NCBI GenBank assembly: GCA_008632985.1
Contig: QPGO01000160.1
Coordinates: forward strand, 1-64,000
Direction: 5' to 3'
DNA from: Psammoneis japonica
Lineage: Eukaryota
DNA length: 64,000 nucleotides
The translations under genes were made by a program, and so were the position numbers. A model generated the notes under the pieces. It did not search any database. It was not told where the DNA came from and saw only the letters and a list, made by a program, of their open reading frames with translations. This document shows, one piece after another, positions 20,314 to 62,280 of this stretch. Position 1 is the first letter of the stretch, and each line of letters starts with the position of its first letter.

Positions 20314-20437
20314 ATGAGACTCTGGCTGTCATCATGGATGCTGGCACCATGTTGGCCATCACCTGTGACAAAGACATGAGACTCTGGCCATCATCATGGG
20401 TGCTGGCACCATGTTGGCCATCACCTGTGATAAAGAC
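20314..20437 (+). repeat. 62-bp tandem duplication in the Copia protease region
   Basis: ATGAGACTCTGGC...CACCTGTGA(C/T)AAAGAC present twice. Confidence 0.9.
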
Positions 20438-34350: not shown

Positions 34351-34627
34351 TGACAGGATTTGAACAGGATTTAGGTGCGCGCGAAGCATCGCGCGCTGTT
34401 TAGTTTACCGCGCACAGTTTTGTGTGCTTTAGTTCCACGCGTTCACGCGCGATGTAGTTTGCTTTCGAGCCACAAGGCTCACAAGAACAATGACAGTAGC
34501 CCGATCACACCGACTTGCACGTCCTTCGGCTCCTGCAACGGTCTCTGAGCGGAGACTCATCTGCTATTTAGACAGCAGCAAGGAGTCATTGTTTTGAATT
34601 CTTGCCATTTGCCTTCAATTTCTGTCA
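34351..34627 (+). repeat. 5' LTR
   Basis: Direct repeat of 41018-41294, TG...CA ends. Confidence 0.95.
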
Positions 34628-36260: not shown

Positions 36261-39200
36261 GACCACTTCTCTGAAGGACAGAAGCGCGTCATGCTCGAGA
36301 ATGCCGTGCACCCTGTCGAGGAACTCCGTGCTGTCAAGAACCAAGCTGATCAGCATCGTACGCAGAGTGGCAAGAGCCTCACATGCGATCAATGCTGTGG
36401 CTTGCTCCTCTCCGCGGCAGCTCAGTGCGACAGCACGTTTCAACCCAAGACGACACCTCGAGCTCCCCGACGTGCCACACACGCACACGACGTCCACTCC
36501 GAGGAACCGTCCGACGATGTGTTCTACGACATTGACAGCGACATTGACGTCCTTCAGGCCAATGCTGCCCACACCCGCGGTCCCAGCCTTGCCGGTGACC
36601 AATGGAGACGTCTCCCTCCCGACCAACAACGGCTCTGGGATTCGTTGCCCGATTCCTCCAAGGCGATCATCCTTGAGCATTCTCGTCCGCCTCCCCGCAA
36701 CCCGCGAGCCAGCAACTGCCATGAGTCTGTTACGGCCAACCTTCATGACCAGCGCCTTGGGAGTGACGGTGATGTCAACTTGTCCAACACGTCTCCTGCT
36801 GACTCTGGTGACTCCGCTCCACATGTGGACGCCACTTCGGACAATCCCATCCTGGTGCACCTCACCAAGCGCAAGCCACTGCCACCCGGTGATCTGCAAC
36901 GTCTGTTGTCTCCTAACCAAGCCCCCAATGCCAGTCGACCGGGGCCATCCGCCGCTTCCTCCGCTGCTTCCTCTACACCGCCAGCTTCTGCAGATGACAC
37001 AGAACTTGACGGCCGCACTTGCCGCCGCGTCAACAACCACAATGTCATTTGCTCTGCCTCTGCTCATCGCTCCACACGCACTGGCGCTCTAGTCGATCGT
37101 GGGGCCAACGGCGGCATTGCTGGTGACGACGTTCGCGTCATTGCACACACCTCTCGCCAAGTCGACGTCCAGGGCATTGACGATCATCAATTGGTGGACA
37201 TCCCCATTGTCACCGCTGGTGCCGTCATTGAGACCCAGCGTGGTCCCGTCATCGCCATCCTCCATCAGCACGCATGCACGGGCAAGGGCAAGACCATCCA
37301 TTCCTGCGGCCAGCTCGAATGGTGCAAACAGGATGTCAACGATCGCTCTGTCAAGGTGCCCAACGGCTTGCAACGTGTTGCCACTCCTGATGGCTATGTC
37401 ATCCCCATTGACATCAAGGCTGGCCTGCCTTGTGTTGCCATGCGACCTTACACTGACGCCGAATGGGACACCCTGCCCCATGTCATCCTCACCGGTGATG
37501 ACACATGGGACCCTTCCGTCCTCGATCACTCTGTCACTGACGACGACCAGTGGTGCGACGCGATCTCTGACCTGCAGGACGATCCCACTGCCAACCTATT
37601 TGACGAATGCGGCAACTACCGTCATCGTGTCGTTGTCAACGAGACCATCATGTCCGCTTCCTTGTCTGCCGATCACGCGTCCGCCCTCGATGATCACCTC
37701 ATTCCGAACGACGACGTGTTCTACGAGTGTCATCTGCATGCGATTGGCCCCCAGGGCGATGACGTTCCACCTCCGGAGCGCACTGTACAGCCCAAGGACC
37801 CCCCCTTCGAGTCTCTTCGGCCTTGCTTTGGCTTCCCACCTGCCGATGCGGTCCGTCGTACTTTTGACTGCACCACGCAGCACGCCCGCATGCCCGCCGG
37901 TACACACCTTCGCAAGGCCCACAAATCACCCAACCCCGCCCTTAACGTGCACCGCCGCAACGAGCCCATCGCCACTGACACCGTTTGTGCCGACACCCCG
38001 GCCGTCGACTCTGGTTGCACCAGCGCCCAACTGTTTGTTGGCACCGAGTCTACCGTCACTGACGTCTGCGGCACTGGGACGGACAAAGAGTTTGTCAACA
38101 CACTCGAGGATCAGATCCGTGAACGTGGTGCCCCATCCAAACTCATTAGCGACCGTGCTCAAGTTGAGATCAGCAACAAAGTGCTCGGGATCCTCCGCGC
38201 CCACTTCATCTCCAGCTGGCAAAGTGAGCCTCACCAGCAACACCAAAACTTTGCCGAGCGTCAACACCAGACCGTGAAGCGCATGGCGAACACTGTCATG
38301 GATCGTTTTGGTTCGCCCGCCCACACATGGCTGCTGGCGCTCATGTACGTGTGCTTCGTGCTCAACCATGCAGCGTCCCCACGTCTCCACTGGCGCACGC
38401 CCCTCGAGACTCTCACTGGCTCCACCCCGGACATCAGCCCGTTGCTTCGCTTTCACTGGTGGGAACCCGTGCACTTCCACCTCGATGACTCCGATTGGCC
38501 ATCCGAATCCCGTGAGTTGCGTGGACGCTTCGTTGGCATTGCTGAGCACGTCGGCCACCAGATGACCTTCAGGATTCTATCTGACGAGACTCAGAAGATC
38601 CTCCACCGGTCTAACGTCAGCTCCGCTGCCCCCGATCCTGCCGTTCGAAACCTGCGTCTTGATCCTCCTGATGGGGAGCCACCTGAACCCATCATCAAAT
38701 CTCGCCATGACGACAACCCCGTCGATTCTCCTGATGGGGAGATCAGGACACCCAAGATGCCAGTTTTCGATCCGCAAGACATCATTGGACGCACCTTCCT
38801 CATGCAGCCACAAGAGGACGGACAACGCCACAGAGCTCGCATCGTCAAGGCCGTCGAAGACCACGAATGGAAAGTGAACGGCAATCCCAAGCTCACTAAG
38901 TTCGTCTGCTCTGTCAACAATGACGAATGCGAGGAAGTCCTTGCCTACAATGACATCATGAATCACATTGAGCAAGAAGACGAAGACACCACCATTTGGA
39001 AATTTCGACGCATCGTGTCACACGAAGGACCTCTGAAGCCTCACGACCCAACCTGGAAAGGCTCCAGCTACAACATCATGCTTGAATGGGAAAGTGGGGA
39101 GATCACGTCCGAGCCTCTTGCCATCATCGCCAAGGACGACCCCGTCACCTGTGCCATCTATGCACGAGAGAACGGACTCCTCGACACTGATGGCTGGAAG

Positions 39201-41000
39201 CGGTTCCGCACCATCGCGAGGCGCCAAAAGAAGCTATTTCGCATGGCCAACCAAGCCAAGCTTCGCTCCTTCCGCACTGCACCTCGCCACAAGTGTGGAC
39301 ACAAAGTTCCCCAAGAACTACAAACACGCCATGTCACTAGACGAATGCAACGGCAACCGCAAGTGGGGAGACGCAACTAATCTCGAGATGGACCAACTCG
39401 ACGAATACGAAGTCTTCCATGACTGCGGGCCCTTCAAGTCTTCCACTCCTCCTGCGGGACACAAGAAGATCCGAGTGCACCTGGTGTGCGACGTGAAACA
39501 CGACGGTCGCCACAAGGCACGACTCGTAGCCGACGGGCACCTCACGGACGTACCTGTCGACAGTGTCTACTCCGGAGTAGTCTCCCTCCGTGGCCTTCGG
39601 CTGATGATTTTCCTGGCCGAACTCAACGAGTTGGAGACATGGGCCACCGACATTGGCAATGCCTACCTTGAAGCCACCACCAAGGAGAAGCTTTACATTG
39701 TAGCTGGACCCGAATTCGGCAAACTCGAAGGACACATCCTTGTCATCCACAAGGCACTGTATGGACTGCGCAGCTCCGGTCTCCGCTGGCACGAGCGCTT
39801 CGCCGACTGCCTGCGAGCTGAAGGCTTCTTCCCCTGCCGCGCCGAACCCGACATTTGGATGCGCAGGAACGGCGACCACTGTGAACACATTGCCGTTTAT
39901 GTGGATGACCTCGCCATTGCCATGAAGGACCCTCAATCTTTCGTCGACACTCTCACGGAAAAGCACAAGTTCAAGCTCAAGGGTGCGGGACCCATTGAGT
40001 TCCATCTGGGTTGCGACTTTTCCCGGGAACCCGACGGAACCTTGTGCCTGTCTCCGCGCAAGTACATCGAGCGCATGGTCGACAGCTGCGCCCGACTGTT
40101 TGGGGAGAAACCCACCACCAACGCCCTGTCACCTCTAGAGAAGGGTGACCACCCCGAACTGGACACTTCCGAACTGCTGGGACCCGATGGCATTCACAAG
40201 TTCCAGTCTCTTGTTGGTTCACTCCAATGGGCAGTGTCCCTTGGTCGAATTGACATTGCCACGGCCGTCATGTCACTCTCTAGCTTCCGAGCTGCGCCCC
40301 GTCAAGGCCACTTGGATCGTGCCAAACGCGTCTGTGGGTGCCTCTCCAAGATGCGACACGGTGCTCTCCGCGTTCGCACGGAAGAGCCCGACTATTCGGA
40401 TCTCCCTGCTCCGGCCTATGAATGGATGCATTCCGTGCATGGTGAAGCAGAAGAGATGATCCCAAAGGACGCTCCACCGCCCCTTGGCAAGTTTGTCACT
40501 GCCACCCACTACGTCGATGCAAACTTGTACCATTGCATGCTCACCGGACGCTCTGTCATGGGAATGCTCCACTTCCTCAACAAATTCCCGGCTGATTGGT
40601 TCTCTAAGAAACAAGCCACCGTGGAGACTGCGACCTGCGGGTCTGAATTTGTTGCCGCAAGGACTTGTGTTGAGCAGATTGTCGACCTGCGCATCACCCT
40701 GCGCTGCCTTGGCGTCCCGATCCGTAATGTTAGTTACATGTTCGGTGACAACAAGTCAGTTGTAGACAGTGCCACCATCCCGCACTCCAAGTTACACAAG
40801 CGACACACCGCACTGTCGTTCCACCGTGTGCGTGAGGCAATTGCCTCTGGTTACCTTGAGTTCCACTTCATCGAAGGCTCCCGCAACCCTGCTGACATTC
40901 TCAGCAAGCATTGGGGTCACTCCCAAATCTGGGACCTTCTCCGCCCCCTCATGTTCTGGAACTTCATTCCATCCGAAGTCGAATCTGTTTCTGTGGCTCC
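36261..41000 (+). pseudogene. pol: Copia gag C-terminus plus pol (protease, integrase, RT, RNase H); frameshift near 39310
   Basis: LVDRGANGG; SDRAQ, SEPHQQHQNFAER; DVKHDGRHKARLVA, DIGNAYL, ALYGLRSSG, YVDD; YVDAN, GSEF, FGDN, NPADILSK. Confidence 0.93.
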
Positions 41001-41017
41001 TCAAGCAAACTGGGGAG

Positions 41018-41294
41018 TGACAGGATTTGAACAGGATTTGGGTGCGCGCGAAGCATCGCGCGCTGTTTAGTTTGCCGCGCACAGTTTTGTGTGCTTTGGT
41101 TCCGCGCGTTCACGCGCGATGTAGTTTGCTTTCGAGCCACAAGGCTCACAAGAATGATGACAGCAGCCCGATCATGCCGACTTGCACGTCCCTCGGCTCC
41201 TGCAACGGTCTCTGAGCGGAGACTCATCTGCCATTTAGACAGCAGCAAGGAGTCATTGTTTTGAATTCTTGCCATTTGCCTTCAATTTCTGTCA
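41018..41294 (+). repeat. 3' LTR
   Basis: Direct repeat of 34351-34627, preceded by PPT and followed by TSD. Confidence 0.95.
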
Positions 41295-41799
41295 CTCATG
41301 ATGGAAGTCATTGCACCAGATGTGGCGCGGCACATTGTGCTCTGCTCTCTCCAGCAGGGGCACAGCCAAACAGGAGTTGTCCCCTTTTGTGCTGTCACAG
41401 ACTTTGGCTTTCACACACCAACATTGACCAAGGGCTCAATTTCATCTGCACGGGTTGCTGAATGTTGCACTCATCTTGTGTCATGAGATCTGGCAGATGG
41501 CCGCATGCCAACAGGAGGACAGGGCCCTGCAAAGCTGATGGTCATGTTTGCACATTTGTGGCACTTGTGTTTTTGGCATCTGAGGAGCTCTTCTTGTTGC
41601 AATGGAAAGTCTTTGGAAAAAATTCAGTCAGCTTGGCCTTGTCTCAAACCAAAAACAGTCTGAACAGGGCAAAGAAATGAGCACCTCATCACACAAAAGT
41701 TGCAGAACAACAATTGTGACTGTCTCCAAGCATTGGCTTTTCTTGTGTGGCCATGAGATGGGTTTTCAATCCTGGTTTTGTGACTCTTTGGCATGCCTG

Positions 41800-42990
41800 C
41801 ACCACCGCAACTGAGACTGTGGATGATGACACCTGAGCTTCTGTCATCCCATCGTGGCTTGTGCTTGACTCAATCATTTCTGCCCTTGACTGTTGCACCA
41901 TTGTTTGCAACAAATGCCTCTCACACAAGGAGATGCTGACAGACACCAACAACAACCTTTGGATGAAGCTCCATGCAATCACATCAACAAGGAAAAGAGC
42001 AATGCCCACCACCCCTGCCTTGTGGAGAGACAAAGCTCTCTCTGGCTGTGCATTTCAAAAACAACCAACATGGATTTGTTTTGTCATTTGTCAGTGGACA
42101 GGCCTCCCTGGCAAGAGACAAACCCTCCAACCACCAAGACAAAGCCATTCATGATCATGCCTTGGAGGTGATTTGTTTGTGCAGTGAACTCTCTCCAAGA
42201 CCAACACTGCTGTGTGTTTGGGCTGCATTCTGTGTTCATGGCTGCCTGGGTGTCAACTCCTAGAGTGAGCATTGGTCAGGTGGACATGTTCCCACCCCAG
42301 GTGATGCACAAGTGACAATCCATTTTGAACACAAATTGTGTGTTTCTTGTGCATGAGCATTTTCACATTAAAACACACTTGCACAGGTGAAAAGTGAAAA
42401 AAGGTTTTTACGGTGGCACTCAAGTCCTCATCATGGGATGCACATGATGTGTTGCAAATTCCTGAGCAGACTCAGCACTGATTGTGCAACAGCAGATTTG
42501 GTGCAATGATGAGAAGCTTTCACAGGTGTGGCAGAATGCCAATTTTACTTCATCACAAGTGACCAATTTGTGTTGACATGGTGAAAATCACCCATTGTGT
42601 TGAGACTTGTTTGTTGCAATAAAAACATTGATGGCACAAAAACAATCATGTTGCAACACTGGCACGAGTCTTGTCAGTGTGTTGCAAACTCTGACACTCA
42701 GGTGAATCTGGGCTTTTGGTGGCAAAAGCTTTGGTTGCAAGTCAGAGGCCACGTGAAATTGTGCAAATGTCATTTTTGTGCATGACTTGGTTTGCACGCG
42801 GCTGGAGCACATCATTGGCAACCAAACAAAGCTGGCAGATGACATGTCTTGGCAATCTGACCCTCACCTCCCTCATTTGGCTTGCACCACTCAGCCAGCA
42901 TCATGTCTGAGGTTTCCTTTTCTGAGGACTTGGACCTTTTTCCTCCTGATTCAAGAGTTTCCACAACTGCTCTCCACTCTCAACTGTTCT
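41800..42990 (+). mobile_element. Decayed DIRS/Ngaro-like RT-RNase H fragment
   Basis: VDDD at ~41820; HIIGNQTKLADDMS...FPFLRTWTFF resembles the RNase H end of YR retroelements. Confidence 0.4.
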
Positions 42991-45970
42991 CTGAGGAGTT
43001 GCTGCCGGTCCCTGTGCAGACCCCAGGGCACACAAAGGACAGCTTCAACACACTGGAGGCCTGTGTTGCATTCTTCCATGAACCTGAAATTGTTGTCGAT
43101 GATGATGGTAGAGCTGCAGCTGTTGTCAAGGATGATGCCCATGATGACTTTGGCTTTGTTCTTCCAGTTGTCCTTCAAGTCATGTGCCATCATGACACAT
43201 GTGGTGGGCCTGTTTGCAACTCCAAAGGGCATGACAATGCACCAACACTTCCTGCCCTGTGGGGCTGTGAGTGCAATTTTGGCAGCTGACAGTGCCCCCA
43301 TCTTATTTTGATGGTGTTGCTGCATGTGTTGAACAGGAAAAAGCTTGAAGCAGAGCTGATGGATGCAGTGTGAGACTGCTTTGGTCATCTGATCAAGATT
43401 GATGCTACCAATGCAGAGTCACCACCCAGATGAGCTCATTGACATCTGTGATGTCTTCTTGACAAGGCTTGGTGGCCACTCACTTGATGTGTTGGGACAA
43501 CATGTCCATTCTCCAGCAGTGTGTCAATTGCATCATTCATGATGGAGGTTTCATGTGGGCTGCATCTGATGTTCTTTGCCATGGTTGGCTTGACAGCATG
43601 CTGGCATTGATGACACATTTGCAGTCTTGGATGGGAGTTTTGACATTTTCTTTGCAGAAACAACACTGTGCTGCAGTTGAGCTTGATGATGTGAGACTTG
43701 ACGTTGTTGTCTGGCAGATTGTCATCAAGCCGCGAACTCTTTTGAAGCTCATTTGTGTCTCAGGCTTGGCCAAAGATGCAAGAAATGAAGTTGGGATCAA
43801 CATCAAGGTCTGTGCACTCTAGACAAGCATTCTTCTCAATGACTTTGCCAACGTGGGCCTTGTGAAGAAGTTGAAAGTCATCTTGGATGTCTGGTGAATT
43901 CTCTGTCTTTCAAAAAGGTTGGGCTTCTTGGCACAACACTGTGGTTTTAGAGTCATGATTTGGCAGCAATTCTGTGATTGCCCAGCAGTTGACCCTGTGA
44001 TGGAGGCATGTTTGGGACATTGACAGTGAGCCAAGTGATGGCAAGGCATGTGGCATGATGTGATGTTGGTTGTTCACAAATGACTTTGACATCATGCATG
44101 ATGCTGCAGTGTGTGACACAACATGGTGGTGCCAACCAGAAGTGGTGGTTGTGGATGGACCAAAATTGAAGTGAACTTTTGGGGAGATTTGAGAGGTCAA
44201 AGTGCCAATTTTGGGTTCTGTGTTGAAGGAGCAGTTCTCAATGAACTTGTTGATCTGGCCTGAATGCTGTTTGGCCACAATGAGATTCAAGCTGGATGCC
44301 AACATGTCACAAGAAATGAGCATTGGAGTGAGGAGCTTTGGAGTCAAGCAAGCCTTGGTGCAGAGCTCCACAGGAAATGGGTTGCAGTCAAGCAGCTCAG
44401 ATTCCTCTGCATTGTCTTTGAAGTCCATGGCCAAGTTGGCTGTGGAGATGAAGCTCATCCCCACAATGCAGCTCTTCACAAAGATGCTCTTTCTAACAGC
44501 AATTTTCAGGAATGTTCTTGGATGCCAATTCTTGGTGTTGTGGGGCAGATGGAACTCCAACACTGCAGGGAGACATTCACAGACATTTTTGTCTGGGTTT
44601 TGTCATCTTTCTGGACCACATTCAAAAGTGCAATGGGTGAGTGGTGATCTGTGGCATGACAGGTGCTCTTGACCAGCTTGGGGTGTGCACCTTTGCAACA
44701 GGCATCCAACAGTGTCAGAGCTGTCAATGATGGCATGGACACCCAGACTGAATGTGCTGTCAGGCAAGCCAAGCTGAAGCATGACATCATGAGGCAAGGT
44801 GTTGTTCACTGGGATGGGAAGTTGAGGAAAGTTGCTTTGTGCAAATTGAAGGACATGCGTGTGGAGAGCAACAACCATCTTGGAGTTGCTGTCACATTTG
44901 TCATTGGAGCTGCCAAGGAACTGCTTGATGGAGTTGATGATTGGGCTGGCAAGCTGATTGTTTCCCCCTGATTTGGACCAAGGAGACAGGAGAGCAGAGG
45001 GGAGCAGGTCACCAGTGTTGACATGGTTTTGATTGCAGCAACAACTGCATGTCCTCTCAGCGTGCTTCTTCACATGCTTGTTGTGAAGTCCTTGTTGCAT
45101 GCTGACTCAGTGTTCTCACAGTGCCCCAGCTCATTGACACAAGGACTGGCAATTGTTTTCATTTTTGAGTCACAGCACAGATGGTCCACAGCTCCACACC
45201 CCCAGCAACCCGACTTGCCTGCAGATTTGCACAGATTCAAAAGCCAAGGCAGTCTTGGTGGCATTGTGAGTGATGATGGGGTTCTTGCTTGTCTTGGTGG
45301 GTTGATGTTTTGGTCATGGTGGCTGCTTTTCAGATGGAGCAGAAGGGTGCTGGGCAGATGGCTGTTGGACAATGGTTGCAAAGCCACATGTCTTGTGGAG
45401 TTTGCCTTGGATGAACAGACAATTGGCAGCAAGATTTGACTTGGTGGTCTTGCCTGCTGCACGCTGTGAAAGCTGCCTGAGTGAGCCTGGTCTGTTCAGA
45501 GCATTGGAGAGAAGCATTTTCCATGTGGCTGCAGAATCCATTGACCTCCATCTTCAGATGGATTTGGGGGTCAAGATTGCTGATGAAAGTGTGCGAAATG
45601 GGTTTGTGATTGTTGCAACATGTTTCTGGCAGGTTTGGAAGAGGAGTCACCAAGATGGTGGTCTGCCGCCACTGGGCCATCCTGAGTGGGTTTGACAACA
45701 CCTGTGCTGTCAAGGCAACACTTGGGGATGATGTTGCCTGTGGCACCATGGCAGGACAACACACCTCAGAAAATTCACTGGCTGCTTGGAAGACTTTTTG
45801 CTGACATGTGGCGAGGTTGTCCATGATGCTGAGATGATTGGCAAGGGCTGGTGGGTGTGCACTGGCCACCACCACCCTCTTGTTGTTGACACATCAAACA
45901 AGAGGCAGCATCCAGCATTGCCTGTGTTGGCAGTGATGCCTGCATGGGATGCGACCATGGGTCTGTGATG
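42990..45970 (-). mobile_element. Decayed Ty3/Gypsy retrotransposon (gag to RT)
   Basis: CWGCGAVDH knuckle; IMNDAIDTLLENGH; HHQNKM...KIALTAPQGRKCWCIVMPFGVAN...IIIDN. Confidence 0.7.
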
Positions 45971-46490
45971 CTCGCGAGGTGAAAGCAACTGTCTCCGGGT
46001 GAACGGAAAAGAGGAAAACCGTTAGAGATTGGCGATTCATGTACCAACGGTTAACGGTTTTCTGGAGCAAGCGTCGATGACGTTACCCTATGATACATAA
46101 GGTACAGTTACGCTTGGTTACAGTAGTGCTAACTGTACTTTAGAATCAGAATAATACCGGTATGTACAGTATGTACCCTTAGGTTGATTATATATTATAT
46201 CACGAGGTTGGAAGGTGGCCGGCGCGACAAGCCTACCGGTATGTACATAACATTTAATATTCATATGTTACTGTACTATAACAGGGACAGTATGGAGTTA
46301 AGGGGGGTCATCCCCGCGTTTATCCTAAAATTACCGTTGCATTTGAATAAGGTTTTTTATAGTGTTTATTTTTGAATACAAGAATTATTCATAGTCACAC
46401 CCGATCGCGCACGAAAACGAGAACCATCAGCACCGCGATCGAAGCACGACGATGATGACAATCATCGATATTTCTCAAAAACGTAGTTTG

Positions 46491-46565: not shown

Positions 46566-46958
46566 ACCACCTCCGTCACAGACTTATGGCTTGTTGTTTT
46601 CACCACGGTGAAGCACGGTGAAATTCAGGAAAAATCATGCAAAACACGAGCTGTTCGGCCGAATTCGAGCTAAAAAAAGTAGCAACCGACCACCCTTAAA
46701 AGAACAGATCCCCTCACTATTCTTGGTGAGAACAGAAGAGTGCAACGATGGACAGCTTGCCGAGTTTCGTTTTTGGTGTGAAGTGTGTTTTTGTGTGGGA
46801 TGCACACACGAGCTGTTTAGTGTCATCCTGCGCAGTGAGGTGAATTCAAAAAACCTCCGATTTGCACTCGCACTCTCACATGCCAATGAACGAAACGTGC
46901 CGATGGCCGATGCTGCTACGGTACGTTCGTCCTAGCACCCAACACTCTCGCTTCACCC

Positions 46959-48271
46959 ATGGGCATGTCAGGTCTTGACAAAGTTTGTGGCAGACAGAAG
47001 AGCTGCCATGTGATGTGGTGATGTTTCTCATGGAGCAGAAGGCTGCTGGCACACGTCAGAATGTGGACGCGCCTAGCAACACTGGTGAAGCAATTGCGGT
47101 GCAACAACCCATGCGTCATTTGAAGTGTGCGATTGATGCAAATCTCGTGGGATGCAAGTGTGCACACGACCGATCATCATGCACGCCAGACGGGGCTGTC
47201 GAACGAATCGCTCGAGCTTTGTCTGATTCGAGAATTGATGCACACATTGTTTGTGACAACGCCACGGCAAGGCACCCATCCAAGTGAGCCTCGTGCTCTC
47301 GTCGAGCAGAGAGTGCTGAGAAAGCAATGCGTCTCATTGTGAGGAGAGCTGAGCTTCAATCTCTGCCAAATGAGAATGACAACACAGCTGAACACGCTGC
47401 AACAGTTGATGATTTCCAGAAGAAGATGCGAAGCCCAGAAAATGCCATAAAGCGGCTCCAGCTGCCGGAAGACTTTGCAACAAAATTGCAAGAATTTGTT
47501 GATTCGTGTGACTGTAGAGACAAAGGAGTTGTTGCTTTTGAAGTCTCACCAATGCAAGCGGATCCTTGTGTTGCAAAGTTGGCCACTGATGGTGAAGTTG
47601 ACTTTTTGATGTCCGGAGATTCGGACTTTCCCATGTGCATTGGACCAAACGGCAAAAGCGACATGGGTGACATTGTCATGAAAGATGTAAAGTTGGGAAC
47701 CAAAAAGGAGCCAATCCGCAGCTGCAAAGTTTACACTGGTCAGAAGGCCGTCGCCGACCTCATCAGCAAAATTCTCACACCCAAGCTAGGACGTTGTCCT
47801 TTTGATTCGGAGGATGGGCGCATCCCAGACTGTCCATTGTTTGACAGGGTACAAGATCCAATGGAACGTGCATTGTTGGGACCAATGACAGGTTGTGATG
47901 TTTGCCCAGGAGGGATGTCTGGAGTGGGTCCAAAGGCTGCCTCCGTCGTGTTCCAGAAACATTGTGCCAGTGGTTTGTCGGGTTCGGCGCTCCACGATGC
48001 ATTGGCAAATGACATGTCCTCCTTAGCTGGAGCAACATTGAAAAACAAAAATGCCGTGTTGTGCATGGCGGCTGCTCTCATGTTTGAGAAAACCAATGAT
48101 GGATGCGTGTTTCAAGCGCCAAAGGAGTTAGATCGATTCAATCAAGATTTCGCTGATTCTGAAACTATGATCATTGATGGGCCGGCTGTTTCTACATGCA
48201 AAGGTTGCTCGGCAGAGTCATCTCACCCATTTTTAGCAAGAAGCCAAAAGCAACACTTTGTTGTTGCGTGA
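46959..48271 (+). pseudogene. XPG/FEN1/Exo1-family nuclease (N and I regions), transposon-associated
   Basis: MGMSGL, AIDAN, IVCDN...PSK, SPMQAD, SGDSDF, GCDVCPGGMSGVGPKAA; frameshift near 46984 and in-frame TGA at 47285. Confidence 0.75.
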
Positions 48272-49704
48272 AAGAGTGCAGCAATGACAACACGAACTCA
48301 AAGTTAAGTCGTGCACCAAATTTACCCCCGAAATTAAAAGAAACCGCAACGCCTGCAAAGTGGATGACTTGCCAGCAAAAAGTCTTCCGACGACGAGAGT
48401 GGATGGACCGACTCGGCTACGGTCGGTTTTGCACAAGTTCCGACCTCAGGACATGCGACAAACATCCAATGGAAATGGTGACAGGTAAAAGAACCAAAAG
48501 CTCAAATAAGGTGATGTCCATTCCTCCATTCCAAGCTCCAGTGCAAGTTGGGGAGAGGAGTCATGACACGCCGGCAAAAACAATGTCGAACGGAAATGGT
48601 GCGGAACGAGAGATCTTGCGTCACGCAAAGAGAATGAGCATGGAAGAATCAAAGCTGTCCTTGCCGACTCGTTTAGCCATGGCAAGAGAAGGCACCAACC
48701 ACAGTGATCTAAAACAATCAGTGCCGGACCCACAGAAAATGGACCCGAGAAGCCTTGCCAATGAAACGCCGAACTCTCCGAAAACATCACTGCGAGCCCT
48801 TGCACCAAAAGAAGCAAAGCGACGCACCGGATTCAGAGATTTAAAACATTTGCTTCGGCACACCAATGTCATTTATGCTGGAGACTTTGACAAGATGGCG
48901 AAGACTGTGACGAAAATGACTTGGCTGGAAGAGCTGTCACTGTGCTTCGAGTTCACGTACGGCCGAAGCAAGAGCCGATCGCAAGACTTTGAATCTGAGC
49001 ATGACGTTGGGCACAGGGTTCTCATGAAAGCCCTTGAGTTCAGGCTTAAAGTTGAGCTTGATTGTCGTGCTCGATGGCCCATGTATGCCTCCCATGCAGA
49101 GGATGCAAAGTTCAGAGACGAAGCATGGAACAGACACTTCGACCAAACGACTGGACCTCGGGTGGTCATGCACGACGCGTCAAACGCACCTTTGCCCACC
49201 CCATCTTCAGGTGACATGAACCGTGCCCTGTGTAATTCCTACTACAACATGTGCTGTGGAAAAGCTGGCATTGCCGCCCAACTCTGTTGTTGGACATTCG
49301 GATTGCCTCTTGTCGCGGGTCACAGTGACGACGACAGACTCATCAAGGATGCGAGGATGCTGGAACTGCAAAAAGTCTTCTCCGAAACAGACCCTTCTTC
49401 AGACATGCCATTTTTGAACATTTTTGATAAAGGACATCACCTAACTTTGGAAGCTCAGACGTGTGGTCAATTGTGCCTGCGTCCTGATGATGCGGATGAG
49501 ACGTTCGGTGGCGACAAGGTTCTCAGAACGGGGTGCATCGCAGTGACTAGATCAGGGAATGAACGAGCTGTGAATCGTTGCAAAATGTCTTGGTTCATCA
49601 AGAGAGGGTGCGTTGATCAGAAGCGTGGGAACATCGGTTTTCTGTGTGATGCATGGGAAAGTTTCACGTTTAGAGTCAACTTCATGTGCAACAAGTTCCA
49701 ATGA
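48240..49704 (+). mobile_element. THAP-like domain plus PIF/Harbinger-ISL2EU-type DDE transposase
   Basis: CCVKECSN...P...W...CDKH; VMHDASN, NSYY, GHSDD, IFDKGH, IAVTRSGNERAVNRCK; TIRs not found. Confidence 0.75.
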
Positions 49705-49991
49705 GGATTGAGCGGGCAACAATTTGGCTGCAAATTGCAGCCGACAATCACGAAACAAATCTTACCTCTACAAATGTGACGATGTAGGTGTATACATGTG
49801 GCATTGTTATACGAGGAAATAATGCTGTAGTGAACATAATGTTGGAAACAGCATCAAATTGTAGCCTGCTGTTTAGCATCGTTGTTTCTCGTTGTGGTTG
49901 AGATGTGTCTTGGATCTTCGCCATCTCCGTATGGTGCTACACAGAATTACGTACGTAGAATGGTACATGCGTTTGTACCGGCATACCAAAA

Positions 49992-53249: not shown

Positions 53250-54887
53250 GTCTAAAATGTCTGGCTGTCATCCGCACACAGTCTTACCATGTGAGTTGTT
53301 TTTGTTGTCACAAGGTGGAGGAAATTTGATGCCACCATGCTGGGCAGTTATTTTCACTTTCCATGCTGTTTGTCATGTTGGGCGGTTGCTTCTCCAACAA
53401 CTGATTGAGCAAATGATTCCCATGGAGTCTGCGCAACAATGCTCGTTTTTTTGTTTTTTTGCTGATGCCTCGGCGGGGGCAAATGTGCGCTAGAACATGT
53501 TTTTTGGCAACGTGCAAATTGACAAAATTTTCCATTTTTTGTGCATCACCGGGCCCTGGAACACATCAACAGCATCCACTCTAACATTGGCACTTGTGAT
53601 GGCGTCGCGGCTGGTGGTGCCATGCTCAACTGCCAAGCGCTGCTTTGCACACAAAAAATCTGTGTGGGCATCGTCAACAACTTGTTGGAATTCTTGGAGC
53701 CCCTTCCATGGTGCAAAGTGGCAACATTTTGCAGCTGCAATGACAAAACAACATGGGAACCACCTCACATCTCAATTTGGTGCTCAACAAGCAGTGCTTG
53801 CAAGCAGGTGCTCAAGTTGGGGTGTGGAGACTTTCATGTGGCAAAATTGGCCAAAGAAAAGAGTTGGCAGAACATGGGTCATCTCAGTTGTTGTTGGTGG
53901 GGTTTGATTGTGAAAACTCTGCACCACCTGCTGAACAGATTCTGCTGCACAAATGTTGTGGTTGACACTTGACCTTCAATCAAGAGCTGCCCAAGAGCCA
54001 TCATTTGTTTTGCCCCAATTTGTTGGCAGGGATGGCAGGGCTTCATTTTGAGAGAGGAGGAGCCATCTTCTCACAATTTTTGCAGCAATTGGTGGCAAGG
54101 ATGCAACAAAAAGTCCCAAATGTGTTGCTCAGAGTCAGTTTGTGATGCAAACCTGTGGTTCACAGTGTGCTTGCGCAGCTGCAAACCAGACATTTTTGCA
54201 CACAAAAATGAAAGAAAAACTCAGTGTTTTGCATCTCCATTCAGCCCCAGAGGTGAAGAGCACATTTGTTGCAGGACATCATGTTGTTGAGAATTTTCTG
54301 GTTGAGGCTGTTGGGAGGACAGGAAGCTGCCGCTTTTCCACACAGCTCAGCAACACACAGCTTGAGTTGTCACTTTGGAAGCGCAGATCTTTCTGTGACA
54401 GCACCTGTTTTTGGTTTGGCAACTTCAGGTGAGTGACAAAAAAGCACTCAAAATGACAGTGTTGAAAATGCTTTGGCTCTTGTGTGCAGGTTGAAGTGTC
54501 TCACCTCACTTTGGAAATTGTTGGAGCTGTGTGCCACAAAGTTTCAATTTTTTTTGTGTCTGCCACCGCAAATTCACATGGCAGCAAGACAAGTTGTGCT
54601 CTCTCCAGGCAGTCAAACAGGAATCACCCCCTTTTTGTGCCATCACCTTGGCCTTCACCAATGTAATTGACTGGGGCATCATTTCCGTCTGTGCTGGTTG
54701 CTGCTGAACGGTGAATTTGTGCAGTGCCATGAGATCTGGTGGATGATGGTGCATGCCAACAGGAGGACCGGGCGCCTTCCTGAGCCACCGGTCATGCTCA
54801 CAATTGCATGTGTTTGGCATCTGAGCTCTTTTTTGAAAACCTCATTGTTGCAATGGAAATCTGATGGAACAAAATCATCCGGTCTCA
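53250..54887. mobile_element. Old unclassified repeat relic, homologous to 33240-34350 and 41295-41660
   Basis: Collinear shared sequence blocks; TA/CG-depleted. Confidence 0.65.
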
Positions 54888-55099
54888 CTGGCCTCGAAAA
54901 GTTGGTCATCGGTGCCCCACAGAAAAACCGTTGAAAATGACCCTCTGACCTCGGGACAATTTGTTTCCCTGTTGCACCTCTCATTCTTCCGAAGAGCAAA
55001 GCAACAACCAGATAGTTTTAATCGCTGTCTTGAGGCTGAGGATGCCTTCAGCCGCATTGTTTGTTGTGTTCGCTCACAGGGATGCCACATTTCATTGTG

Positions 55100-57308
55100 G
55101 CAAATGTGCCACCACCACCAGGAGCAGGACAAGGACCGCCACCTGCGGTGAATCCGAATGCAGGAGGTCAACCGGCACAAGCCGCAGCACCTCACGCAAA
55201 CGTTGCACCACAACTGGGGGCAGCCCAACCAGTGCCACCAGTTCATCCGGTGCAAGGAGGAGCTGGAGCACTGCCCCCACCGGTGCAGCCAGTTGCTGCG
55301 CCGCCCCAGCAGCCACCGACAGTGCCCTTGCCAATGCCGGTCATCGACACATGCCAGGCATGCCACTCCACGATCAACGATGACCCGCATGGCGGTGAAT
55401 GTGCCAACCCGATGTTGGATTTTGCGGCTGTTGTAAATGGCAATGCAAGGCACGGGGCGAACGTGCTTGTGGAACGAGTCGCATCTGCCTCGACGCACAA
55501 CATGCCCATGGCTGTGGTTCTCCACTGCTGCGACCCCAACGCAGACGCGGCGGATCCGGGCCGCATTCAAGTCTGCCATCGCATTGCTCTGCATCCAACC
55601 ACGGTCGCAGGGCCACCCCAGCCATGGGATTGTGACCTTCCCGGATGCGCATTTTGCGTTGGCCGCACCAGGGACTTGGGTTCCTGCTGATGCGGCTCTA
55701 GCAGCTCATGTCACCGCTGTGCCCGATGGGTTGCACCCGGCTGCAGCAGCGCACGATGCAGACTCAGAGGAGGCACGGACGAGAGGAACCATGTTCGTGC
55801 CCTTCAATTTGGTCAAGCTGCTGCCACCAGAGCCGTTGACCCCCAAGGAGGTGTGCACTCACGCACATGGAGTGCTTGACGCAGCCAACAAAGTGGCCAA
55901 TTGCCGGGCACTTCTGGATTTTCTTCGCATCGCATGTGTCGCGACACAAGCCAGTGGCGAGGAGTCGGCGGTTTGCATGGAGTGGCCTGCTCTCCCGCAA
56001 CCGCCTGACGAGCATCTGATTCGTTTCTTTGATCAACGCGTGCAGCATGACCTTCCTGGATTCAAGGCACCGGCTGCACCGGGACCGCAGTTCCAGCCGG
56101 TCATTCGTGCTGTCGACGACCTCACCGCGGAACAACGGCAACAGCGTTTGGATGCCCAAGCCCACCAACAGGCTGCCGATCGCGGAAAGATGCCGGTGCA
56201 GTTCTGCGGAGAACACAGCATCATAAAACTTGTGAGATTGTGCCAGGTGCATCAAGAGAATCAGCTTCCGCCCTTTTGGCAACGTTTGGCCACTGCACCC
56301 AAGACTGGGCAGATCGCCACAGTGCAGAATGCTGTGGACGAGCAACGCCAGGCACAGAACGTGCACTTTGAGGTCCCAATTTCAGTCAGCATGGTCACCA
56401 AGCTCATTCAACTCTCATTGGCCGGACATGACAAAGACAATCTCACCCAAGGTGTCAATCCTTTCATTTTCGGACTTGCCACTCCTCAACAGGTGGAACA
56501 GATTGCGCGCCGTGCGGCCATGTGCCACCAGATTCACGGTGGAATGGGCATGCCCTCCCTGTCCGACACTGTGGTTCTTGAAGCACCGGACGACGCGAAG
56601 GTCACCACCACTGTGCAGGCGGTCCAGCATTCGCTTGATGGACTTTGGGTGGTCCTGTCTGCGGCCTCAGGTGCCACCCACCCGGTCGTCCGTTACCTCA
56701 TGGACCTTCACCGCTCTTTGGACGTTTACGTCAATGATCTTGCACTGCAGATGATGCACTGCCCTGCGCTGCCTGCAGATTTCCAGCGCTGTGTCCAGAT
56801 CGAAATCCATCATTGGTTTGAGGATCAAGAATCCATGCATAATCCCGCTCCATTCACGCCCAAGAATGTCATCTACGAGGTGGCCAAGGGTGCCATGAAT
56901 TGGCAGCATCCACTGCCAATCGCCGTCCGACCCCAAGCCCCACCAACATGCGGCCCGACGGGACCGCTTCAGCACTCTGGATCGCCCCAAGCACCTGCAC
57001 CCACATCCGCTGGGCAAGCTCAGACCCCGGGCGACAACTCTGTTGTTCGCAATGAGAACTGCGATGACCGTTTTTCTGCCGTTCGTGACTGCCCGAACGT
57101 GCGCTCATGTGATGTCAAGCAGCGCTGCGCTCGCAACAACATTGCCTTGCCCGTTGACTCGAATGGCACTGCCTGTTGCCTCCCCTGCCACATCAAGGGC
57201 CAGTGCAACACCAACCGTGGTTCCCGCAATGACCATCACGGACGCCACACCGATGCAGAGCAGGCTGCACTCTTAGAGTGGGCCACGGAGCATTGGAAGA
57301 CCGAATGA
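55100..57308 (+). pseudogene. Ngaro gag-like ORF1 with C-terminal Cys/His finger
   Basis: Pro/Gln/Ala-rich start, frameshift near 55630, CLPCHIKGQC...NDH. Confidence 0.7.
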
Positions 57309-59520
57309 GAATTCGGCAGCGGTGTCGGTTCGGGGACCGACTGTCTTTTCATCTGGAACTGGTGATGGCTCCAGACCCGCCACCCCCGCAGGCAGAGAAC
57401 CCATGCGCTCAGCAGAGCCATGGTCGTCCCACCCTTTGTGGGCAAACCATTGCTGGCTCTGAGCTGGACAAATTGGGTGAGCAAATTCTTGAGGACACTT
57501 CTGCACTTCGTCAAAAAGGTCTCAGTTACCTCCTTTGCCATCGTGGGAAGAGAGGAGACTGGGGTCAGCTCTGCAAGGCCGCAGGGCATCCAGCCCACAG
57601 GCTCTTGCGCCACTGCCGAACACGGGGAGCGCCCATCACGGTCGCCGATTCCCCGTGGACGGCCGAAGAGCTAGAAGCAAGCATCGCCAGGGGGCCACAC
57701 AAGTCCGCTTACGAGCACATCGATTTTTTGCAGGAAGACATGCACGACTGCGTTGAGAAAGGTTTTTGGGTTGTGCTGCCGTACGATGAGGTGAAGAGCA
57801 TTCCTGGTCCACGCATTGGCCCGATGGGAGTTGCACCACAACATGCCAGACGGCCCCGTCCCATTGTTGATTGCTCCCACTTTGGGGTCAATCAAGCCAC
57901 GCAGCCCAACGCCCCCATGGGGGCAATGCAATTCGGCTGGACTTTGGACTGCCCACTTTGGCGTGTCCTCCTCGCCAACCCGAAAAAGGGTCGAGTCTAT
58001 CTGATGAAGATTGACCTTTTGGATGGCTTCTACAGAGTCTTCTTGTCTGAAGATCGTGCACCTTTGTTGGGCGTTTCTTTCCCACACTCACCAGGCGAGC
58101 CACGCCTCGTGGCCATTCCGACATGTCTGCCCATGGGATGGACTGATTCGCCACCGATCTTCAGTGCAGGTACAGAGACTGTGGCTGACTTGTCAAATCA
58201 GGCCTTGCTCCATAATGTCACAGCACCGCCACACCGATTGGAGAAATTCGCCGAGAGCCGTCCACCGACACATCAACCGACGCCGCCATCGGACCCTGCG
58301 CTCTCTGTTCCCGTTCCACCCAAATCCGACCCACATCTAAACCACTCTAAACGTCGGCGTTTAGCGTGCATCGACGTTTATGTTGACGACTTTATCGGTG
58401 CAGCACAGGGCGACAAGACCGCCCGCCGCAACGTGCACTGAGTTGTCATGCATGCCATCGACGACATCTTTCGCCCCACCGATTCCCATGACTCGCCCAC
58501 TCGCAAGGAGCCCATGTCCGTCAAAAAGCTCTGCAAGGGCAATGCAACGTGGACCACACAGAAGGAGGTCCTCGGTTGGTTGATCGACACTCAGTCGATG
58601 ACCTTGCGGCTAACACCACGCCGCCGAGAGCGCCTTCGCCAAACACTGCACCAGGACTTTCCCCGGAGCCGCCGCCGCACCACTGTCCTTGATTGCCAGA
58701 AGCTCTTGGGCGAATTGCGTTCGCTCGCTGTTGCCTTGCCCGGAGCCCGAGGACTTTTCTCCGTTCTGCAGGAGAATCTCCGCCACGCTGCACCCGACAC
58801 ATGCCTCCGGCTTGCGGAGAACGTGCGCACCATTCTTGATGATTTTCGAGACCTCTGCACAATGCTGGATGCACGCCCCACCCGCATTCAAGAGCTGGTC
58901 CCATTGGAACCTGCTGTTGGTGGTTGTCACGACGCAGCCGGCCATGGTGCTGGTGGCGTCCTCCTGCCAACTCCCACAGCCACGCCACGGGCCACTCAAC
59001 TCCACACTGGCACCGGACGTGTCCGCCCTCACACATGCCTGGGCCCCATTGCATGGCGCATGCCCTTTCCCAGGGACACAACTGCCAGACTTGCCACCTG
59101 CGAGAATCCCAAGGGTCCCATCACCAACACCAACCTTGAGCTCGCAGGCAGCTTCATTCAGTCCTGCGCCATCGCGGATTGCTGCGACATCAGGGAACGA
59201 ACCTTCCTTTCCCGCACCGACAACCTCGGCACCATGTTTCAGCAACGCAAAGGAGCCAGCACGACCATCAAACCAGCCTCCCATCTCCTCCGGGGCCAAG
59301 CATGCCACCAACACTGTCGCCGTTATGTTGGCCTCCACGACTGTCTCCCCGGCTGCCTCAACGGCGCAGCAGACGATGCTTCTCGCATGCAACGCCTCTC
59401 TGACACTGATTTCTTGCACCATTTTGACTCTGCTTGTCCACAGATCTCCTCCTGGCGAATGTGGACCCCACCACCCGCGCTGCGTTCATTCGTGATCTCA
59501 GCGCTGCGCAGCATGCCGTT
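57278..59520 (+). pseudogene. Ngaro reverse transcriptase and RNase H
   Basis: KIDLLDGFY, LPMGWTDSP, YVDDF, HDAAG, LELAG, TDN, NGAADDASR; in-frame TGA at 58439. Confidence 0.9.
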
Positions 59521-60605
59521 GCCCATGGCGTCACTGCTTCAAGATCCTCCGCCGCCGACACCCACTGGAGTCTCTGGTCCAACTTCTGCACCCAACTGGC
59601 CCTCGATCCACTCCTCGAAGACGTTTCCGACCCCGTCATCTACCTTCAAGTCTTCCCACATCGGTTCCGAACTGGCGCCATCGCCCCCCGCGGAAATCCC
59701 ATCCGCGCACGCACCGCTGAGGATGCCGCATGTTCGGTTGGACAAACGTTTGTGGCAATGGGGACCAAAGACCCCCGACTCACATCCCAAGGCCAATTGG
59801 ACTTCCGCCTTAGCCAACAAATTCGCTGTTGTAAGAAAGAGGATCCTCCACCCGACCGGGTCAAACCAGTCCCCGTTGCAGTTCTCTTTTGGGTGCTCCA
59901 TGCCGCCGCAATCACACCCCATGTTGGAACAAAAGCCATTGCCAGCATGATTGCGCTGGCTCACTTTTTTCTCCTTGGCCTGGTGAATGCACCGCCACCC
60001 CATCTGACACCACCCCCTTCCGCCTCGCTGATGCACGGCTCTCCTCGGGCAGTGTTTACCTTGACATTTGGACAGCCACCGACGCCCAACTCAATGCCGC
60101 CACATTCGCAACGCTTGCATTCACCGATCAAAAGAACGGCGTCCGCGGTGAAGTCATCAGTTTAGGCTGCTCTGACCACCCCCAATTTTGCCCTGTCCTC
60201 GCGCTCATTGAGCGCGTCAAGCACCTTCGTGCTCATGGAGCGCTCCCAGACTCCCTGCTGGGAGTTTGTTTTGCCAATCATCGATGGCATCGTGTTTCAC
60301 TGGTGGACATCTCCTCCATGCTGCGCACCGCCATCGTTGCCATTGGCCCCGCCAACCTGGGTTTCAACCCCACCGACATCTCGGCCCGTTGTCTCTGCGC
60401 CGCCGGTGCCATGACTTTGCTTTGCGCCCTCGTTGACACCGACGTCATCCGGCTCTTGGGCCGGTGGCAATCGGACGAGATGCTTCATTGCCTTCATCTC
60501 CAGGCTGAACCCATCATGTGCAACTTCGCCAGATGCATGTTGGCAGGTGGAGATTTCGTCCTCCACCCAAATGCGGAGGTTCCCGTTCACCCGGAACCTC
60601 CGTGA
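59434..60605 (+). pseudogene. Ngaro tyrosine recombinase, frameshifted
   Basis: HFFLL/PGEC, DQKNG, CPVLAL, SARCLCAAGA, GRWQSDEMLHCLH. Confidence 0.85.
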
Positions 60606-61524
60606 TTCACCACCAGCCCGCTGGCCGGGCCCACCCACCCACCCAAGACTCGTGGCCCGTTCCGACTCCACATCTTCATTGGGAGGCGCTGGCGGCCCTG
60701 CCATCCAGCTTGGGATTTGGAGAGGCGTCATGTGCACTGGTGAAGCACTCTCCACTCCCAACCGCCTGTCCCACTCACCACCTAGCCTCCCAATCCGGGT
60801 CGACCGAAGGACGAACGAGAAAAGCGGCGGCAGCCGCTGGCCTCGAAAAGTCCAACGGACGAGAGGGGCCTGTGACCGTTGGTCATCGGTGCCCCACAGA
60901 AAAACCGTTGAAAATGACCCTCTGACCTCGGGACGATTTGTTTCCCTGTTGCACCTCTCATTCTTCCGAAGAGCAAAGCAACAACTAGACAGTTTTAATC
61001 GCTCCCACCTCTCCCGCCCTCTGGCCCTGCCGTCCAGCTTGGGATTTGGAGAGGCGTCATGTGCACTAGTAAAGCACTCTCCACTCCTAACCACCTGTCC
61101 CACTCACTACCTAGCCTCCCAATCCGGGTCGACCGAAGGACGAACGAGAAAAGCGGCGGTAGCCGCCCAGAAACGTCTACAACAGGCTAAAGAGCAATCA
61201 ACCTTGTCTTATGAAAGTTACAGAACAAAAATCATGAGAACCCTCCAACCATTGAGACAAAGCCATTCATAGTTATGCATGGAAGGTGATGCGTCCTGTG
61301 GAAGAAGAGAAGAATGGAATAACAACCACACGAAAAAGGACCAGCTTTTGCGCAAAGTTGCAATTCAGAGAACGAGTTCTCAACGCACGGGACGAGCTGT
61401 TGCTTTCAAGTCCAGGGACTAGGCTACAAGTGGAATCTAACCGCAAGGGTTGTTTTCAGATTGTGCTTCGCCTCAATCCATTATTGACATTTCTACACCG
61501 CCCAAATCACCATGATGATTATTT

Positions 61525-62280
61525 TCAGCTGCATACATCGTGTTCTTGTTGAGCGTCTTGCTGCTTTACAATGGCTTGATGGACAATGGATTCAGTGACA
61601 TGGATCGATCGGCGTTTCCAATACAAAAGAGTCGGTGGCACAATGTAGAGCAAATGCCACAACACCATGTTGTAGGGAAAGCCACCCAGGTCGGTAAAGC
61701 CTACAAGAATCCACACGTAATAGACCAAAAAGGGCATTCCAAGAACTAGCATCAAAAGGTTGATGCAATATACGCGCCCAAGCCTCTTTTTCCATTCCTC
61801 GGGGTACATTCCAGATCGTGGATGCCACCGTAGCACTCTCAATTCGACGGAACTCCCAACATCAATTTCCTCTTGCGTGTGAACTATGATTTCGAGCACT
61901 TGTACCAACACGGTATAATCAATAGTAATACGAAACGAGTTGCGCTGTGGAACCAAATCAACCACTACTCCATACAAGGACTCTGCCATGGAATCATCAA
62001 GATAGGCCTTGTTGAATTTATGAGTGGTCCAGAGTGTTGCAACCGGACGCACGCCGAGAAACAACACGTTCAACATCAACACGATTCCCACAGCGGTGAT
62101 GAAATTGAAAATTGCTACGTCAATATCACCCGTGCCCCCTTTTAAGCACTTCACACCAATCCAAATGTATACAATGGTCCACAAGAAGAGAATTACGAGA
62201 AATTGGCACCTTGTAGTACTCCTGTAGCAGAATAACAGGCTGCTGCACCATGATGATTCGAAGTTGTCAAGTCCCGGCAT
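61525..62280 (-). CDS. Hypothetical membrane protein (about four TM segments)
   Basis: 251-aa ORF with hydrophobic segments and normal Tyr content. Confidence 0.6.
   Translation of the reverse strand: MPGLDNFESSWCSSLLFCYRSTTRCQFLVILFLWTIVYIWIGVKCLKGGTGDIDVAIFNFITAVGIVLMLNVLFLGVRPVATLWTTHKFNKAYLDDSMAESLYGVVVDLVPQRNSFRITIDYTVLVQVLEIIVHTQEEIDVGSSVELRVLRWHPRSGMYPEEWKKRLGRVYCINLLMLVLGMPFLVYYVWILVGFTDLGGFPYNMVLWHLLYIVPPTLLYWKRRSIHVTESIVHQAIVKQQDAQQEHDVCS

Follow-up and report, generated by a model that had tools for sequence, protein, structure and literature searches.

We examined a stretch of 64,000 nucleotides from the diatom Psammoneis japonica (positions 1 to 64,000 of contig QPGO01000160.1, assembly GCA_008632985.1; hereafter the window), in which a degenerate Ngaro-like retrotransposon, one of the tyrosine-recombinase type, occupies 54876..61166 on the forward strand. 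The element is 6.3 kb long and is recognisable from its repeat layout, frames, homologs and composition, the dinucleotide TA being present at an observed-to-expected ratio (o/e) of 0.12 with CG at 0.80 and a GC content of 0.585. A repeat search and pairwise alignment reveal split direct repeats in the order A1, body, B1, 29-40 nt, A2, 19 nt, B2, with A1 (54900..55026), B1 (60694..60837), A2 (60877..61003) and B2 (61023..61166) all on the forward strand. The A pair (126-127 nt) is 97.6% identical and the B pair (144 nt) 95.1%, and the 13-14 bases preceding A1 are a repeat of the spacer that follows B1. A1 adjoins the TA-free remnant of an old transposon, here called X, and B2 adjoins DNA of normal TA content; TA itself occurs twice in A1, once in B1, twice in A2 and six times in B2 (o/e 1.05). 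These repeats suggest that transposon DNA at this locus has undergone a hypermutation that erases TA, and that B2 has been spared, possibly through its position.

Both the repeat layout (A1...B1-A2-B2) and the order of the frames (a long 5' frame, reverse transcriptase (RT), tyrosine recombinase) are those of Ngaro/DIRS-order retrotransposons, from which the present copy differs in being dead and distant from recorded proteins, the nearest of which are 57% identical for RT and 53% for the recombinase. The long open frame upstream of RT (55437..57308, forward strand) resembles gag only in its position and matches no Pfam family. Ngaro elements are set apart from DIRS1/PAT by an RNase H behind the RT and by the lack of a methyltransferase domain; frame 58442-59950, which follows the RT here, likewise had no Pfam match. 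The RT frame (57233..58441, forward strand), which carries YVDD, was identified by Pfam, homologs and alignment: its match to RVT_1 (E 0.00098, 19.3 bits) is under the 29.6 cut-off, and it has 141 homologs at E<=1e-5, several of them with PF00078. At conserved residues it shows Y214 changed to C (TGC), L193 to P (CCA), V201 to A (GCA), R240 to C and R402 to H. Downstream, the recombinase frame (59835..60605, forward strand) was given no name by Pfam and PDB sequence searches, and Foldseek alone returned no match at E<=0.001; its conserved motif MLRYLH here reads MLHCLH, by R218H (CGT to CAT) and, at the catalytic position, Y219C (TAC to TGC), and Y52 is now C. With frameshifts, with stops and with the catalytic Tyr replaced by Cys, the copy is dead. 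Wherever a relative of its proteins, or of a host transporter gene in the window, carries a name, it comes from a diatom (among them Cyclostephanos, Fragilaria, Cylindrotheca, Nitzschia, Mayamaea and Fistulifera; 40-57% identity); exact look-ups of two host proteins gave no hit. No second copy of the family was found in the window, and tblastn of 270 Ngaro proteins against it gave a single match, a weak Ngaro-like RT/RNase H remnant at 23678-23995 (E 1e-9) inside a large TA-free island, 78% complementary to 59251-59310.

Alignment of B1 with B2 gives seven mismatches over 144 nt, transitions throughout. At five, TA is kept in B2 and reads TG or CA in B1 (60739/61068 and 60742/61071, G/A; 60759/61088, 60779/61108 and 60831/61160, C/T; B1 named first), and nowhere in the 144-nt alignment does B1 have TA opposite TG or CA in B2. 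The remaining two are of the CG/CA kind, one in each direction (60703/61032, A/G, CA in B1 and CG in B2; 60764/61093, G/A, CG in B1 and CA in B2). A preliminary description made from the letters of this DNA had reported both classes, and the alignment confirms them. If the two copies were the same at the formation of the element, B1 would since have undergone six changes, losing five TA and one CG, and B2 one, losing the CG at 61093. Taken by itself, the 5:0 direction in the B pair is weak (two-sided binomial p 0.0625). A1 and A2 differ at three positions in 126-127 nt (54958/60935, CA/CG; 55009/60986, CA/TA; 55013/60990, TA/CA), so that by comparison one TA (55009) and one CG (54958) are lost from A1 and one TA (60990) from A2. 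The reciprocal TA/CA changes in this pair, also described earlier, are present at the latter two sites, but A1 does not lie at a border with unique DNA. The A repeat is taken here as 126-127 nt because the initial ~11 columns of the automatic 137-nt match (54890-55026) are non-homologous; these excluded columns are the source of four transversions and one other transition.

Transitions between TA or CG and CA or TG make up 20 of the 21 mismatches in three transposon pairs: 7/7 in the B repeats, 3/3 in the A repeats and 10/11 in the long terminal repeats (LTRs) of a copia element. As a control we used a tandem gene duplicate of ~1.6 kb outside the islands (9007-10613 and 12905-14510; 97.6% identical, spacing 3898), in which only 11 of 38 differences belong to this class, with 20 transversions and 7 other transitions (Fisher p 4.8e-7 against the transposon pairs). 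The special spectrum is restricted to transposon DNA and is absent from the neighbouring genes. Repeat pairs of 79 related Ngaro loci from metagenomes have mixed spectra. Two further repeats may be mentioned: the end repeats of one of these loci, L013 (1-329 / 6078-6406), where 17 of 24 mismatches are transitions at pyrimidine-purine (YpR) steps, CpG-type and none involving TA, and a 62-nt unit in two tandem copies (94% identical; 20314-20437) in the large island of the window, whose differences are again TG/CA-type transitions.

Stretches nearly devoid of TA occur elsewhere in the window as well. Old islands at 15250-25250, 41000-46000 and 53300-54889 have a TA o/e of 0.04 and a CG o/e of 0.15-0.27, with CA and TG each at 1.7-2.0 and the remaining dinucleotides normal, compared with TA 0.60-0.66 and CG ~1.0 in gene-bearing DNA. 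Their borders are sharp, within tens of bases; one island, for example, runs 1529 bp without TA to 46022, after which TA occurs every few bases. A stretch at 33286-34350 is of the same island class (TA o/e 0.04, CG o/e 0.15-0.27, CA/TG 1.7-2.0). For the Ngaro-like element, the 79 metagenome loci offer a baseline of composition only, as they are not hypermutated and are mostly collapsed consensus contigs with end overlaps. Their TA o/e has a median of 0.65 (0.37-0.85) and their CG o/e is 0.80, so the TA depletion to 0.12 seen here does not characterise the family. The same decay, in a milder form, may be visible in L003 (3927 nt), a related Ngaro locus of another assembly with TA o/e 0.37, CG 0.49 and CA/TG 1.62.

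Several independent lines make it very probable, as far as sequence comparison can tell, that the direction of change is from TA to TG or CA, as the preliminary description had proposed. First, there is the depletion just described. Second, proteins record it: in the RT, recombinase and Harbinger-like transposase frames, each aligned with 34-40 homologs, the 13 conserved Tyr columns of the three alignments comprise five that are kept, four that have become His and four that have become Cys, and change in the opposite sense, from conserved His or Cys to Tyr, is seen at 0 of 21 columns (against 8 of 13; p 7e-5). The Harbinger-like frame belongs to a PIF/Harbinger-like DNA transposon at 46750-49750 (homologs with PF13359; TA o/e 0.19, CG 0.81) with Tyr to His at four conserved sites and Tyr to Cys at one; no convincing terminal inverted repeats were found for it, and its ends are not usable. 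Further replacements fit the same kind of change, namely Val to Ala (GCA), Leu to Pro (CCA), Ile to Thr or Met (ACA/ATG) and Arg to Cys, His, Trp or Gln. Third, two dinucleotides of the copia LTR pair are CA in the 5' and TG in the 3' LTR, and two copies of X show 24 CA-versus-TG double mismatches compared with 2-9 for each other class of double transition. CA and TG are not one step apart, while each is one step from TA and from CG. To these lines can be added the flank-dependent survival of TA and the majority states of family contigs, both considered below.

The opposite polarity would have B1 as the ancestral copy and B2 as having gained five TA by C to T change at CpA/TpG, in the manner of repeat-induced point mutation (RIP), of which CpA to TpA is the classic signature. 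The five differences alone fit either direction. Such a process should enrich TA, yet TA is depleted in the element and in every island, and the usual indices are the opposite of those of RIP (TpA/ApT 0.14 and (CpA+TpG)/(ApC+GpT) 1.54 in the element). Nor can it account for the CA-versus-TG double sites, or for conserved Tyr giving way to His and Cys and never the reverse, and we find it scarcely credible.

Contigs from sequencing run X1 supply majority states for the family. Among the 40 best-supported of 1349 differing places, those where nearly all contigs oppose the window, 15 have CG in the contigs and TG or CA in the window, three have TA in the contigs and CA or TG in the window (57682, 60623 and 60779), four are adjacent CA-versus-TG pairs, three and one run in the reverse direction and ten are of other kinds. 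At the five B sites this outgroup evidence is thin: only 60779 is among the places listed (2 contigs), with T as the contig state, and that contig may be B2's own, placed on B1. The question whether the B1 state is ancestral in the family can be put to this one site, where the answer, with that reservation, is no; for direction we lean on the other lines.

The same comparison bears on whether the changes are present in the DNA at all, since modified bases that were miscalled, or wrongly polished, in assembling long reads could mimic loss of TA and CG. At 17 of the 40 places no run X1 contig carries the base of the window, most of these being CG in the contigs and TG or CA in the window, and only 0.58 of the sampled words from 60500-61400 occur in run X1. 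These 17 places count against our interpretation, yet as Logan contigs lose rare variants they neither support nor refute the sequence of the window. On the other side, 138 run X1 contigs match the stretch at >=99%, ~170 nt of the listed family contig sequence contains a single TA, and the frames of nearby host genes are intact. A strand-specific miscall at palindromic TA should moreover produce conflicting strands, not clean TG and CA with TA and CG near zero over 10 kb. We therefore consider an artefact very improbable; even if real, it would imply a modification at TpA limited to transposons.

The loss of TA depends strongly on the flanking bases (Y, pyrimidine; R, purine). YTAR (CTAG, TTAA, TTAG, CTAA) accounts for 29 of the 44 TA surviving in old islands, whereas its share of the TA of gene DNA is 16% (p 2e-13); RTAY accounts for 0 of the 44, its share in gene DNA being 30% (p 1.5e-7). 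Relative to the metagenome baseline, the Ngaro-like element retains 3% of TA in the RTAY class, 14-15% in the mixed classes and 28% in YTAR. CG survival is independent of flanks, at 14-20% in all four flank classes. Within the A and B repeats ~7 of 18 TA copies are mutated compared with 3 of ~32 CG copies, so TA loss is the faster, and the existence of two kinds of island, one with TA lost and CG kept and one with both lost, fits this. Loss of CG to TG or CA appears confined to transposon islands, consistent with methylation-driven CpG decay.

Both strands are affected: CA and TG rise about equally, and the polarised events comprise six TG and nine CA. As repeats that were identical when the element formed now differ, the action was on DNA and in place. 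Editing at an RNA stage, or an event of reverse transcription, was considered and is ruled out, as both strands and a DNA transposon are affected and repeats within one element differ. The palindromic four-base context argues for enzyme-like, duplex-symmetric recognition. Among the gains in old islands YTGY outnumbers YCAY, and RCAR outnumbers RTGR, by ~2:1; this fits T-A-Y as a target of A to G change, with CG loss as a confounding factor. As to the chemistry, adenine might be deaminated at T-A, or a modified thymine might miscode, and we infer that the process is linked to chromatin.

What can be said of the sparing of B2? At the context-corrected rates of the element's interior 1.27 of its six TA would be expected to survive, and all six do (P 6.6e-5), compared with one of six in B1. 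Because the two sequences are the same, their fates must differ by position or by history. Only two zones of the element hold at least five TA per 144 bp, namely the 3' end and 58338-58393, and towards the 3' end the last detectable TA loss is at 60990 and the first retained TA of B2 at 61067. At five old-island borders CpG loss too is weaker over the outermost 375 bp of the island (o/e 0.32, 36 observed and 112 expected) than further inside (0.17, 29 and 172; p 0.006). The preliminary description had proposed that mutation intensity falls at island borders. The under-mutated B2 and the CpG gradient at five borders lend this some support.

A number of observations nevertheless leave the case for a border effect weak. 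TA was examined at a single border (n=1). The copia element (34351-41294; RVT_2, E 9e-29; TA o/e 0.34) is inserted into X, so that both of its LTRs are flanked by old X DNA, and its 5' LTR (34351..34627, forward strand, 8 TA) keeps TA at five sites lost in the 3' LTR (41018..41294, forward strand, 3 TA), again 5:0; unequal mutation thus arises without a border to unique DNA, although the 5' LTR does lie nearer an island border than the 3' LTR (1.1 kb versus 4.7 kb). The asymmetry of A1 and A2 is 1:1. Retained TA also form a cluster of five inside the element (58338..58393, forward strand; CTAA, CTAA, TTAG, TTAT, TTAT). In old islands TA loss reaches the borders, with an o/e of 0.05 over the outermost 125 bp, though as those borders are defined by TA this is partly circular. 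Looking for a protected edge of X beyond its TA-defined left border, we found no homology outside 33452/53632. Finally, the flanks of the element are discordant. X copy 2 (53286..54875, forward strand; TA o/e 0.04, CG 0.27), an old hypermutated transposon remnant homologous to 33672-34320 plus 41339-41634, is cut by the left end of the Ngaro-like element; X copy 1 continues for ~4.4 kb, and nothing X-like follows B2. As X does not resume to the right of the element, a rearrangement has taken place here, and B1 and B2 may stem from different insertions.

One alternative is accordingly that another member of the family, younger or less heavily mutated, supplied B2 and perhaps A2 through gene conversion or ectopic recombination, in which case the direction of mutation would hold and the contrast would be one of age or origin. 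The discordant flanks would be explained, TA loss changes abruptly near 60990-61067 with no long gradient, and A2 is also lightly mutated (1/3 TA). Family contigs with joints 60468->61022 and 60642->61056 indicate that the repeats do recombine in the family; the same joints suggest that some copies have a single B and are without the B1-A2 unit. Yet the 10 A and B differences are YpR transitions throughout and include neither transversions nor indels, when about a quarter of the differences of family contigs (313/1349) are transversions; a site-specific exchange at the terminus of the element would swap flanks and leave B2 unchanged; and there is no second copy to serve as evidence of a donor. 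We regard such an origin as unlikely, if worth keeping in mind.

A second alternative is a patchy process that works tract by tract or on the scale of nucleosomes and is short of saturation, B2 being an unmutated patch, terminal by chance, with no effect of the border. The internal cluster at 58338-58393 speaks for it. Selection was considered as a reason for that cluster and rejected, since four of its five TA could change silently. The LTR contrast within an island counts in the same direction, as does a 750-bp stretch of the copia element between LTR and long frame (35501-36250) in which TA is normal; this stretch also contains a 66-nt palindrome (35932-35996). With two patches among ~43 windows of 144 bp, the chance that one falls at the single border with unique DNA is ~0.05. 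The internal cluster, however, retains only the slower classes (three YTAR and two YTAY), whereas B2 also keeps two RTAR; the gradient of CpG loss at five other borders indicates a real border effect; and the end of the B2 patch coincides with both the end of the element and the end of a contig from run X2, to which we return below. Chance placement thus seems decidedly improbable. Of the readings considered, sparing of B2 by its position fits best, though not securely, and that explanation as a whole, set out below, stands evenly poised between right and wrong.

If position is the cause, the neighbouring gene offers a possible reason. A 251-aa membrane-like open reading frame lies at 61525..62280 on the reverse strand, with its tail toward the element. 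In run X2 a single contig lies on a 6.7-kb stretch here, a minus-strand contig of 1486 nt that extends from ~62460 to 60975 with 0 differences, and nothing covers the other 6.2 kb; run X1 has 494 contigs on the same stretch, and no contig of run X3 matched it. An ATTAAA on the minus strand (60999-60994), within A2, is 19 nt upstream of the end of the X2 contig. The contig is mRNA-shaped and offers a lead, not a result: the gene would have a probable 3' untranslated region (UTR) at 60975..61524 on the reverse strand, running through B2 into the end of A2. If run X2 is RNA, the mutated domain stops where the host transcript ends. Counting against this, run X2 is labelled 'DNA?', and contigs cannot prove the end of an RNA. 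Should the 3' UTR be confirmed, the host gene would be using transposon sequence as its terminator. In one run X1 contig 54773 is followed directly by 61239, the 6465 bases between them being absent (the shorter side is 29 letters); this may reflect either an artefact of repeats or a haplotype that lacks the element.

We propose, on these grounds, the following history. A dead Ngaro-like retrotransposon sits in transposon-rich diatom DNA, and such transposon DNA would undergo transition hypermutation in place, symmetrically on both strands, at the two self-complementary pyrimidine-purine steps: a fast, flank-dependent change of TpA to TpG or CpA (RTAY fastest, YTAR slowest) and a slower, flank-independent change of CpG to the same products. 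B2, given that it had the same sequence as B1, would have escaped by virtue of its position, the mutated domain ending between 60990 and 61067, ~100-180 bp inside the 3' end of the element. At this limit silent chromatin probably gives way to the transcription unit of an expressed neighbour gene, and it may be the transcript of that gene that sets the limit. In its fullest form, the proposal is of a transposon-directed defence by DNA editing with a new chemistry, T:A to C:G at TpA on both strands, preferring RTAY and resisted by YTAR, acting beside CpG decay, bounded by chromatin or transcription units and so sparing the terminal, nucleosome-sized part of an element where it lies in the 3' UTR of a host gene; we put this forward tentatively, as somewhat less probable than its negation.

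How does such a process compare with those already known? Transposon-targeted hypermutation is known as RIP (C to T) in fungi, and CpG decay occurs wherever transposons are methylated. RIP, in Neurospora and other fungi, is similar in that dense transitions confined to repeats and transposons are introduced in place on both strands with a dinucleotide preference, destroying coding capacity and leaving compositional islands. It differs in changing C:G to T:A, mainly at CpA, and so creating TpA; here T:A becomes C:G at TpA, TpA is erased and the indices are inverted. RIP is also triggered by duplication, and the 1.6-kb tandem gene duplicate of the window is unaffected; though this is a single case for which no threshold is known, duplication alone does not seem to be the trigger. 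RIP depends, further, on an enzyme of the RID/DNMT4 type and on a sexual stage. Diatom DNMT4 is described, in the passages quoted from one study, as related to fungal RID and of unknown function (PMC9998398). Decay of methylated CpG resembles the CG to TG or CA part of the changes, which lies in the same islands, is independent of flanks and is slower than TA loss, but it cannot yield TA to TG or CA, where loss is faster and has a four-base context.

For TpA itself, candidates come from further afield. We know of no base of the 5-hydroxymethyluracil type in diatoms. If a modified T at TpA miscoded, T to C change would result, and in dinoflagellates, another lineage of SAR (stramenopiles, alveolates and Rhizaria), 5-hydroxymethyluracil is a modification of thymine that prefers TpA (and TpC), is enriched in repeats and has a role in transposon silencing, as reported in quoted passages that make no mention of mutational decay of TpA (PMC11572971). 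TpC, by contrast, shows no depletion in the islands of the window (o/e 0.85-1.05). A second possibility is an adenosine-to-inosine deaminase of the TadA/ADAT/ADAR kind, since deaminated A reads as A to G and since the 2:1 gains of YTGY and RCAR, with CG loss confounding, fit T-A-Y; these enzymes prefer a 5' U or T before the target A. They act on RNA, however, and here both DNA strands have been changed in place and a DNA transposon is affected. Very-short-patch repair in Escherichia coli, through its bias from T:G to C:G, erodes a TA-containing word, whence the scarcity of CTAG; it is bacterial, genome-wide and tied to one methylase site, whereas CTAG is here among the most resistant contexts. 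A literature search of listings and quoted passages found no published account of a loss of TA to TG or CA limited to transposons.

We class the finding as transposon-directed point hypermutation, opposite in chemistry to RIP. If TpA is indeed erased in this way, an ecologically major group of algae would have a second chemistry for defending its genome, or for mutagenesis linked to heterochromatin. The consequences would be a rise in GC, the conversion of Tyr codons to His and Cys, and the destruction of signals of the TATA and AATAAA types. With its strong four-base context the process offers a practical way toward the enzyme or modification responsible, and the split repeats of Ngaro elements, together with LTR pairs, provide an internal clock and a test of polarity that need no family consensus and can be applied genome-wide to all copies. 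Should the mutated domain end where host transcription units do, that limit would constitute a record of past chromatin borders that can be read from sequence.

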